Positions 5,338 to 37,669 of a stretch of 64,000 nucleotides of DNA are shown here, one piece after another. The translations under genes and the position numbers were made by a program. Source of the DNA: Patescibacteria group bacterium (lineage in GTDB: Bacteria > Patescibacteriota > Microgenomatia > UBA1400 > PJMF01); NCBI GenBank assembly GCA_023382875.1, contig JAHDXH010000001.1, forward strand, positions 18,571 through 82,570. Direction: 5' to 3'. The notes beneath the pieces are model-generated. The model worked only from the letters and a program-made list of their open reading frames with translations. It made no database searches and was not told the DNA's origin. Numbering within the stretch: the stretch's first letter is position 1; each line of letters opens with the position of its first letter.

Positions 5338-5410
5338 TGATCCCGTGTCAGGATTCGAACCTAAGATAACTGATTCAGAGTCAGTTGTGATGCCACTTCA
5401 CTACACGGGA
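5338..5410 (-). tRNA. tRNA-Gln (anticodon CUG)
   Basis: Minus-strand read TCCCGTG-TA-GTGA-AGTGGCA-TCAC-A-ACTGA-CTCTGAA-TCAGT-TATC-TTAGGTTCGAATCCTGA-CACGGGA-T. Cloverleaf with 7-bp acceptor (U1-A72, as in bacterial tRNA-Gln), anticodon loop CT-CTG-AA and T-loop GGTTCGAATCC. CCA is not encoded. Confidence 0.7.
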
Positions 5411-36624: not shown

Positions 36625-36843
36625 ATGAGTAATTTTCAAACTGGAACCTACCAACATTACAAAGGTAATAAATATTTGGTGCTAGGTGTCGCAAAGCACA
36701 GTGAAACTTTGGAGGATTTAGTTGTTTATATTTCACTTTATGAAAATGATTTGGCCAGCATGTGGGTTAGGCCACTAAAAATGTTCACCGAAAATGTTGT
36801 GGTTGATGGCAAAAGTGTGCCGAGGTTTAGAAAGTTGGACTAA
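36625..36843 (+). CDS. DUF1653 family small protein
   Basis: YQHYKGNKYLVLGVAKHSETLEDLVVY matches the DUF1653 signature. 72 aa. Confidence 0.55.
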   Translation: MSNFQTGTYQHYKGNKYLVLGVAKHSETLEDLVVYISLYENDLASMWVRPLKMFTENVVVDGKSVPRFRKLD

Positions 36844-36853
36844 TTTTAATAAA

Positions 36854-37477
36854 ATGAGAAGACTTTTATTAGCATCGTATGCAGCTTATACATTAGATTT
36901 GATTAGTGAATGGTTTTCAAAGCCAGTAAGTGAGCTAACTGCTGCAGTTATTACGACCGCAGCCGATCCATACAATGATAAAAGCTTTGTTGACGTCGAT
37001 CGAAATAAATTAGTAAAAATGGGTTTTGAAGTCGTCAACATTGATTTGAAAAATAAAACCTTGTCTGATTTGAAAAGTGAGTTGGAAAATATCGACTTAA
37101 TTTTGATGGCTGGTGGCAATACTTTTTACTTACTAGATCATATAAGGAAAAGTGGTTTTGATGTTTTATTGCCCGATTTATTGGATAAAGGTGTAATTTA
37201 TGTTGGCTCCAGTGCTGGCTCGTTGGTTTGTTGTTCGACTATTGAAAGTGCCAAGAGATTTGATGACACAACTATAGCGCCTGATTTAAAAAATTATATT
37301 GGTTTGGGTTTTTTTGATAAAGCAATTATTCCTCACGCTCAGAAAGAAAAATATTTCGAAAGAATCGAGTTAACTAAAAATGAGATGAAGGAAGTTGGAC
37401 AAGAAGTTGTTATTTTGACCGACGATGAAGCGATTATGATTACTGGTGACGAAGTTAAAAAAGTTGCGAAAATGTAG
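36854..37477 (+). CDS. peptidase E-like, S51 family (type 1 glutamine amidotransferase-like fold). The track ORF begins at 36794, but ATG 36854 (MRRLLL) avoids overlap.
   Basis: LILMAGGNTFYLL and YVGSSAGS (nucleophile Ser) are typical of PepE/cyanophycinase-like S51 peptidases. Confidence 0.7.
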   Translation: MRRLLLASYAAYTLDLISEWFSKPVSELTAAVITTAADPYNDKSFVDVDRNKLVKMGFEVVNIDLKNKTLSDLKSELENIDLILMAGGNTFYLLDHIRKSGFDVLLPDLLDKGVIYVGSSAGSLVCCSTIESAKRFDDTTIAPDLKNYIGLGFFDKAIIPHAQKEKYFERIELTKNEMKEVGQEVVILTDDEAIMITGDEVKKVAKM

Positions 37478-37478
37478 T

Positions 37479-37566
37479 TGGCGGAGGGGGCGGGATTCGA
37501 ACCCGCGGCAGCTTTCACCGCGGCGGTTTAGTAAACCGCTGCACTAGGCCACTATGCGACCCCTCC
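37479..37566 (-). tRNA. class II (long variable arm) tRNA, Ser-type, with anticodon loop TT-ACT-AA (apparent anticodon ACU)
   Basis: Minus-strand read GGAGGGG-TC-GCA-TAGTGGCCTAG-TGC-A-GCGGT-TTACTAA-ACCGC-[16-nt variable arm]-GCGGGTTCGAATCCCGC-CCCCTCC-G-CCA. Perfect acceptor and T stems, CCA encoded. One nucleotide away from a canonical tRNA-Ser(GCU) loop. Confidence 0.7.
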
Positions 37567-37669
37567 TGAAGTAGGCTGAAGATATATTTTATCACGTTTC
37601 CCCCATCTTATTGCTTGATCTTGATCGATCTATTTGCAGGTCTATGTTGCTGTCTGCTACTATTAATAC

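Follow-up and report, generated by a model that had tools for sequence, protein, structure and literature searches.

Can a tRNA whose anticodon begins with adenosine serve a split codon box in bacteria? The window, by which we mean the whole 64,000-nucleotide stretch of a Patescibacteria metagenome-assembled genome (MAG) analysed here, raises this question since it contains a serine tRNA gene with the anticodon ACU. The near-absence of anticodons starting with A has been an open question since Crick's wobble paper. The published reviews and surveys draw on cultured genomes. A 2021 review describes A34 as 'universally missing' in the Ser/Arg split box, with phages also lacking the same genes (PMC8007984). 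A 2026 preprint lists seven two-codon-box A34 tRNAs as 'universally absent', calls their absence a mystery and reports that, across 4047 bacteria in GtRNAdb, such tRNAs occur sporadically and always alongside the G34 form (bioRxiv 10.64898/2026.05.15.725136). None of the literature that we searched, coverage of which was incomplete, describes a Ser(ACU) lineage conserved in Patescibacteria or in phages. Here we argue that the gene quite probably encodes a functional chromosomal elongator tRNA-Ser of Patescibacteria (CPR), with an A34 that is most likely unmodified and reads AGU by Watson-Crick pairing.

The first-pass annotation had described an 88-nt class II tRNA with a perfect acceptor stem, T arm, long variable arm and encoded CCA, and each of these was seen again using ARAGORN, Rfam and the sequence itself (Table 1). 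The gene, whose full sequence is GGAGGGGTCGCATAGTGGCCTAGTGCAGCGGTTTACTAAACCGCCGCGGTGAAAGCTGCCGCGGGTTCGAATCCCGCCCCCTCCGCCA, matches RF00005 over the full model (1-71) with 53.8 bits (gathering score 29, E = 9e-9). Its acceptor stem, GGAGGGG/CCCCTCC, is paired at 7/7 positions, the T arm is GCGGG-TTCGAAT-CCCGC with a canonical T loop, and G18G19 are present. The anticodon stem GCGGT/ACCGC closes a 7-nt loop, TT-ACT-AA (U32 U33 A34 C35 U36 A37 A38), exactly as read previously: ARAGORN calls tRNA-Ser(act) and the Rfam alignment gives the same triplet. The anticodon had however been placed at about 37528-37530, whereas its correct span is 37532-37530 with the wobble base A34 as the complement of the plus-strand T at 37532. 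ARAGORN reports the anticodon at gene positions 35-37 because the D loop holds one extra base.

Table 1. Features of the tRNA-Ser(ACU) locus, in window coordinates
Feature	Position	Strand	Basis or remark
tRNA-Ser(ACU) gene, 88 nt, class II, encoded CCA	37479..37566	-	ARAGORN, Rfam RF00005, sequence
Anticodon ACU	37530..37532	-	A34 37532, C35 37531, U36 37530; ARAGORN and Rfam alignment agree
Discriminator G73 (37482) and encoded 3' CCA (37481-37479)	37479..37482	-	Sequence
Long variable arm CGCGGTGAAAGCTGCCG, 17 nt, class II hallmark	37501..37517	-	Rfam alignment: insertion between anticodon and T arms
Candidate extended -10 element TGATAAAAT	37586..37594	-	Read by eye; ends 19 nt upstream of mature 5' end
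tRNA 3' end, plus strand TGGCGGAG	37479..37486	.	Element insertion point in sister strain; empty in window

SerRS uses the long variable arm of class II tRNA-Ser. Leu and Tyr class II tRNAs have A73, and G73 with a long arm marks serine identity; G73 together with the acceptor start G1-C72, G2-C71, A3-U70 are serine identity elements. The window gene has the cloverleaf, the variable-arm stem, the G73 and acceptor start, and an anticodon complementary to a serine codon, as a class II tRNA-Ser should. It is an ordinary tRNA-Ser except for its anticodon, which belongs to a class thought to be excluded. Upstream of the gene we noted a candidate extended -10 element, which we regard as weak because a consensus sigma-70 scan gave no two-hexamer promoter on the tRNA strand; a terminator scan was likewise empty there. 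ARAGORN found two tRNA genes in total in the window (GC ~37%), the second being a tRNA-Gln(CUG) at 5339-5410 on the minus strand (Rfam, 63 bits). On the plus strand, a PepE-like (Peptidase_S51) ORF at 36794-37477 has a stop codon that ends 1 nt before the 3' end of the tRNA gene. This ORF encodes 227 amino acids from its first ATG. Its true start probably lies ∼20 codons downstream, since the homologues are shorter (203-211 amino acids) and since a 72-amino acid DUF1653 gene, called on the contig from Logan SRR21762701 (L001), overlaps the ORF start.

The first-pass annotation had left three options for this anticodon: an unusual decoding solution in a reduced genome, a recent G-to-A change, or a sequencing error. 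The last of these we reject because the identical gene with A34 is present in three other samples, namely a sister strain (Logan SRR22452317, L248:20154-20241), Logan SRR28413650 (L005; partial at the contig end, CCA not encoded) and JGI contig Ga0172372_10023454 (L276). Logan SRR21762701 also carries the identical tRNA, and may represent the same reads as the window because its proteins match the NCBI MAG exactly. In the relative from SRR28413650, the neighbouring PepE-like protein is only 78% identical to that of the window. When synteny was followed via the PepE-like gene, the tRNA was at the same spot in very close relatives only. At a locus with a 66%-identical PepE (L006:3741-3824), a tRNA-Ser(UGA) rather than Ser(ACU) lies downstream of the PepE-like gene; the same contig has a serine recombinase gene upstream of it.

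Our search pattern, CGGTTTACTAAACCG-N(14-30)-GGTTCGAATCC, fixes the anticodon arm and A34, and it was run on a single genome for each GTDB species. At least 119 loci matched, and at least 117 of them, representing at least 117 species-representative genomes, hold a tRNA-Ser(act) according to ARAGORN. Record titles place 44 of the 80 loci listed in Patescibacteria groups (Saccharibacteria, Paceibacteria/Parcubacteria, Microgenomates, Nomura-, Yanofsky-, Taylor-, Zambryski- and Levyibacteria). Another 16 bear the label 'uncultured Pseudomonadales/Gammaproteobacteria', although CPR-type tRNA backbones and Arg(GCG) neighbours are seen in several of them; 8 are Planctomycetota, 2 are Verrucomicrobiota and the rest are scattered singles or unclassified. 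Ten proteins encoded in the window are identical to NCBI proteins in the range MCL4208028-MCL4208086, which carry the name 'Patescibacteria group bacterium' and the locus tags KJZ63_. Since the window comes from a Patescibacteria MAG and the tRNA is widespread in Patescibacteria, it is the option of an unusual decoding solution in a reduced genome that is supported.

Together with the window gene, 99 distinct Ser(ACU) sequences fit one cloverleaf, in which both partners have changed with pairing preserved at 17 of the 27 stem pairs. The variable-arm stem also covaries (alignment columns 47-49/63-65 and 52-53/61-62). All 99 members have G73, and the acceptor start is G-C, G-C and A-U in 99, 99 and 97 of them, respectively; G18G19 and the GGTTCGAATCC T loop are invariant, and CCA is encoded in only some relatives. 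Conservation of the anticodon arm in this set is uninformative because the search fixed that arm. Covariation of this kind is expected of a functional RNA that is kept by purifying selection, which, judging from these alignments, the Ser(ACU) family appears to be.

The gene was also found outside Patescibacteria. In a Planctomycetaceae MAG (GC 0.60), Ser(ACU) is chromosomal, as it is surrounded by molybdenum-cofactor and redoxin genes, and its T stem has a U-U mismatch. Near-identical Ser(ACU) genes were observed in several Planctomycetota MAGs with GC ∼0.6 (L131:2976-3066, L136, L164, L186, L188, L189 and L216), where the context is chromosomal (MoeA, MoaC and MoaA-like genes), the U-U T-stem mismatch is present and CCA is not encoded.

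The anticodon had originally been described as ACU instead of the canonical GCU. The relatives do not support such a substitution: they hold ACU in addition to GCU, with a tRNA-Ser(gct) within at most 8 kb of Ser(ACU), often 100-300 bp away, in 55 of the 117 genome loci listed, and within a few kb in 9 of the 32 metagenome Ser(ACU) loci listed. The adjoining GCU genes have the anticodon stem CCTCT/AGAGG in 20 cases, and one alone resembles the ACU arm GCGGT/ACCGC. Because a GCU gene with a different anticodon stem adjoins in 55/117, we regard ACU as an extra, old paralogue and not as a replacement. With the anticodon masked, the nearest neighbour of 125 of 126 ACU tRNAs was another ACU tRNA, a figure raised in part by the searches themselves, in which the anticodon arm was held constant. 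In Patescibacteria, then, the GCU and ACU genes differ in their anticodon stems and form separate clusters. The loop TTACTAA of the window tRNA is nevertheless that of the relatives' neighbouring GCU tRNAs save for base 34. More generally, Ser(ACU) shares with bacterial tRNA-Ser(GCU) the class II long variable arm, the G73, the acceptor start GGA, the loop UU-NCU-AA and A37; it differs at base 34, where G pairs with both C and U but an unmodified A should pair with U alone. One tRNA 92% identical to that of the window (L307) lies 1.6 kb from a GCU gene. In the window, ARAGORN, one of the checks proposed in the first-pass annotation, confirmed the anticodon and detected no tRNA-Ser(GCU) within the 64 kb; the GCU gene of this genome is presumably located elsewhere.

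We also scanned metagenomes with AGTGCAGCGGTTTNCTAAACCGCC, leaving base 34 free. There were at least 120 matches, of which 88 with G34 and 32 with A34 were listed. The 32 A34 genes are all distinct, have a CPR-type short variable arm and lie on contigs of low GC (median 0.39), whereas the 88 G34 genes are near-uniform, have another variable arm and lie on contigs of high GC (median 0.69). Among the matches listed, this GC contrast holds even with an identical 23-nt context. Although base 34 was free in the search, all 32 listed copies with the CPR-type backbone keep A34. Because the A34 and G34 states do not mix, A34 seems to be stably inherited in its lineage, with no toggling with G. In the metagenome sample listed, A34 is associated with AT-rich genomes, which prefer AGU. 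We noted that the D arm and anticodon arm of the G34 group (88 listed, within L249-L368) are those of the window tRNA, and that its members are almost always beside a tRNA-Arg(gcg).

The explanation that we prefer has several steps. An old, separately evolving paralogue would accompany Ser(GCU), which would read AGC and could also wobble to AGU. The window tRNA would be expressed and serylated. SerRS recognises the long variable arm and the acceptor end, not the anticodon, and since it ignores the anticodon, A34 should leave charging unchanged; AGY would then be the only two-codon NNY box in which a G34A copy stays correctly charged. A34 would stay unmodified, so that reading would be confined to AGU by Watson-Crick pairing. 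In a lineage without an inosine-34 system, and with the loop UACU, no ICU would be formed and so no misreading of AGA would follow, while an unmodified ACU discriminates strongly against both AGC and AGA. That the gene encodes a functional AGU-reading tRNA-Ser we consider likely, the unmodified state of A34 being the weakest step in this chain. The wider proposition, that a tRNA-Ser with unmodified A34 is maintained specifically for reading AGU by Patescibacteria as a group and by many uncultivated phages, is one towards which we lean with less assurance.

In the window, AGT (340) is the commonest serine codon, followed within the box by AGC (156), while AGA (285) is the main arginine codon and AGG is found 60 times. 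When the CopA-type ATPase of the window was aligned with 119 homologues and columns with at least 80% consensus were scored, 9 of the 10 columns with AGT were Ser columns, and all 5 with AGA were Arg columns, where 94% of homologue residues are Arg. With AGU on Ser and AGA on Arg, the AGN code is standard. We reject a code change, with AGA read as Ser, on account of these CopA columns and of the normal use of all three stop codons in the window. The comparison of AGU with AGC suggested in the first-pass annotation, carried out on the window only, revealed an excess of AGU but no codon bias specific to ACU: AGT makes up 69% of AGY codons, and the T-ending share of the other NNY boxes is 63-73%. 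Any benefit would thus be one of general AGU demand without a special bias, because the AGT share is no higher than that of the other boxes.

The alternative that survives best, though we consider it unlikely, is that A34 is deaminated and that the resulting ICU reads both AGU and AGC, making GCU redundant at the price of some AGA misreading or a tolerated ambiguity. Bacterial A34 is normally deaminated, and about half of the ACU loci listed have no GCU gene within the few kb retrieved. Misreading by ICU would be costly, because AGA is the main arginine codon here (285) and lies on conserved arginines. The tRNA genes around Ser(ACU) also speak against deamination. ARAGORN found tRNA-Arg(gcg) 8 times and tRNA-Ile(tat) 7 times in the genome Ser(ACU) loci listed, and tRNA-Arg(gcg) in 4 of the metagenome Ser(ACU) loci listed, but tRNA-Arg(acg) in none of either set. 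Because these loci carry Arg(GCG) and never Arg(ACG), we favour the absence of inosine-34. The window loop is UACU, with U at base 36, and does not match the UACG of the TadA substrate; TadA requires G36. A tblastn search with E. coli TadA gave no match within the 64-kb window, which is too short for this to be decisive. In agreement with the loci above, CPR have been reported to be without tRNA-Arg(ACG) and to use GCG instead (Shulgina and Eddy, PMC8629427). We observed Arg(GCG) and tRNA-Ile(UAU) around Ser(ACU) in Patescibacteria-type loci L141, L143, L151, L157, L160, L184, L187 and others, a context pointing to a decoding system that lacks inosine-34 and perhaps lysidine too.

Experiments in E. 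coli bear on the same point from two sides. An engineered Phe-tRNA(AAA), which serves a two-codon box, was converted to and read as inosine-34 (bioRxiv 10.64898/2026.05.15.725136). In contrast, engineered ACU tRNAs (Schmitt et al. 2024, PMC11066159) were without inosine by reverse-transcription sequencing although E. coli has TadA; an orthogonal ACU tRNA read AGU at 9.4% and AGG at 0.36%, with AGC and AGA below detection, and AGU was preferred over AGC by at least 95:5. These data agree with the first-pass expectation that an unmodified ACU reads AGU while an inosine would misread AGA. An engineered Ser-tRNA(ACU) was moreover among the A34 tRNAs that improved, rather than harmed, E. coli fitness (bioRxiv 10.64898/2026.05.15.725136). 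The engineered tRNAs share the anticodon of the window gene but are laboratory constructs, whereas the Ser(ACU) tRNAs described here form a naturally conserved gene family.

The absence of TadA or inosine does not appear to be a general precondition for an ACU anticodon, because Ser(act) is accompanied by Arg(acg) in a phage array (L085) and because GC-rich Planctomycetota carry ACU. Compared with the tRNA-Arg(ACG)/TadA system, the window tRNA likewise has an encoded A34 followed by C35, the two anticodons differing only at base 36. It is unlike that system in its loop (UACU versus UACG), and its lineage has Arg(GCG) and apparently no ACG; inosine in tRNA-Arg(ACG) extends legitimate decoding, whereas in the window tRNA it would cause misreading. 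A second comparison is with tRNA-Thr(AGU) of Mycoplasma capricolum, according to the part of PMC11066159 that cites it a natural tRNA with unmodified A34 in a reduced-genome bacterium. That tRNA serves a four-codon box, where multi-codon reading is harmless, whereas the Ser/Arg box to which the window tRNA belongs is split, so that superwobble by A34 would insert serine at arginine codons.

A further possibility is that the gene is a tRNA of a mobile element or phage, providing the element with an AGU reader or evading anticodon nucleases rather than serving translation of the cell. To examine viral sequences we scanned IMG/VR with the same arm pattern and N at position 34. At least 120 contigs matched, 88 with G and 33 with A among those listed. 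The 33 Ser(act) genes listed are mostly in tRNA arrays, in which a common order is Lys(ttt)-Glu(ttc)-Ile(tat)-Ser(act)-Asn(gtt)-Gln(ttg)-Thr(tgt)-Arg(tct), a set of tRNAs for A/U-ending codons. This order is shared by uncultivated phage contigs L012, L015, L023, L031, L042, L105, L106 and others. There was no Ser(gct) in any of the 33 loci listed. Several matches in non-CPR MAGs (e.g. L169) also resemble phage tRNA arrays. A non-exhaustive BLAST search of INPHARED with the window tRNA and a phage-type ACU tRNA as queries returned only Ser(UGA), Ser(GCU) and other tRNAs, and no ACU.

In the sister strain (Logan SRR22452317), a mobile element is inserted exactly at the 3' end of the tRNA. Between the PepE-like gene and the tRNA of this strain there is a ∼9.5-kb element (L248:10673-20153), which encodes a 585-amino acid large serine recombinase and a D12 N6-adenine methyltransferase along with several ORFs of unknown function. 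In L248 and L002 the PepE stop codon is followed by the 8 bases TGGCGGAG and then by foreign DNA; TGGCGGAG is duplicated at the far junction of the element, beyond which the tRNA is intact. The window-type tRNA thus doubles as a mobile-element integration site, a role that is typical of host tRNA genes. In the window itself the element is absent and the tRNA lies between ordinary genes, so that its flanks are cellular, unlike those of the 33 IMG/VR copies listed, which are phage tRNAs by their context. Its backbone (TCGCATAGTGG...TAGTGCA D arm) is common to neighbouring chromosomal Ser(UGA) and Ser(GCU) tRNAs of CPR genomes, and CPR loci place Ser(ACU) in core tRNA clusters (Ser cga/gga/tga, Arg gcg/ccg). 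Set against these observations, an origin and function confined to mobile DNA seems quite improbable for the window copy. The only earlier mentions of Ser(ACU) that we found concern mobile or viral DNA, with the anticodon predicted once for a tRNA array of Acidithiobacillus and once for the chlorovirus ATCV-1 (PMC4758250, PMC4810235). Those were single unanalysed listings, whereas the gene described here is chromosomal and conserved across many Patescibacteria-labelled genomes.

We think it very improbable that the tRNA is charged but used outside the ribosome, for instance to donate serine in the modification of cell wall or lipids, in which case its anticodon would be irrelevant. Non-proteinogenic tRNA isoacceptors do exist in some Gram-positive bacteria, and an extra Ser isoacceptor beside GCU seems redundant. 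However, the known non-proteinogenic tRNAs differ from the canonical G18G19 and T loop, whereas this family retains both, the T loop as GGTTCGAATCC, in canonical form without variation. Nor would an irrelevant anticodon fit the retention of A34 in all 32 of the listed metagenome copies with the CPR backbone, for which base 34 was free, or the grouping of Ser(ACU) by phages with tRNAs for A/U-ending codons.

Finally, it is scarcely credible that the gene arose recently from tRNA-Ser(GCU) by a G34A mutation, that it is a pseudogene in decay or that it reflects an error of assembly or sequencing: GCU and ACU are one transition apart and surveys find two-codon-box A34 tRNAs only sporadically (PMC8007984; bioRxiv 10.64898/2026.05.15.725136), but a recent mutation, the remaining first-pass option, is excluded by the large and diverged ACU family (at least 117 species and 99 distinct sequences, with compensatory stem changes) and by the different anticodon stems of the adjoining GCU tRNAs, while error and decay are opposed by the identical sequence in three other samples, including the relative with a 78%-identical neighbour protein, and by canonical tRNA elements that are all intact.

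If an AGU-reading tRNA-Ser with unmodified A34 is the correct interpretation, the family would be a natural, conserved exception to the exclusion of A-starting anticodons from split codon boxes. The exception would be enabled by SerRS ignoring the anticodon together with loss or non-recognition by the A-to-I system, and the 'forbidden' status of such anticodons would then be contingent on the modification machinery instead of marking a fundamental decoding limit. It would also offer a natural system for testing superwobble misreading, interference by A-to-I editing and synthetase identity. For annotation, Ser(ACU) genes should be neither 'corrected' to GCU nor discarded as pseudogenes. We also noted a tRNA of Xanthomonas phage XacN1 (AP018399.1, 45979-46067; L372:296-384). 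This 89-nt tRNA is 76.5% identical to that of the window over 83 bases, has the anticodon GTT and is annotated as tRNA-Asn; it may combine serine identity with an Asn anticodon.
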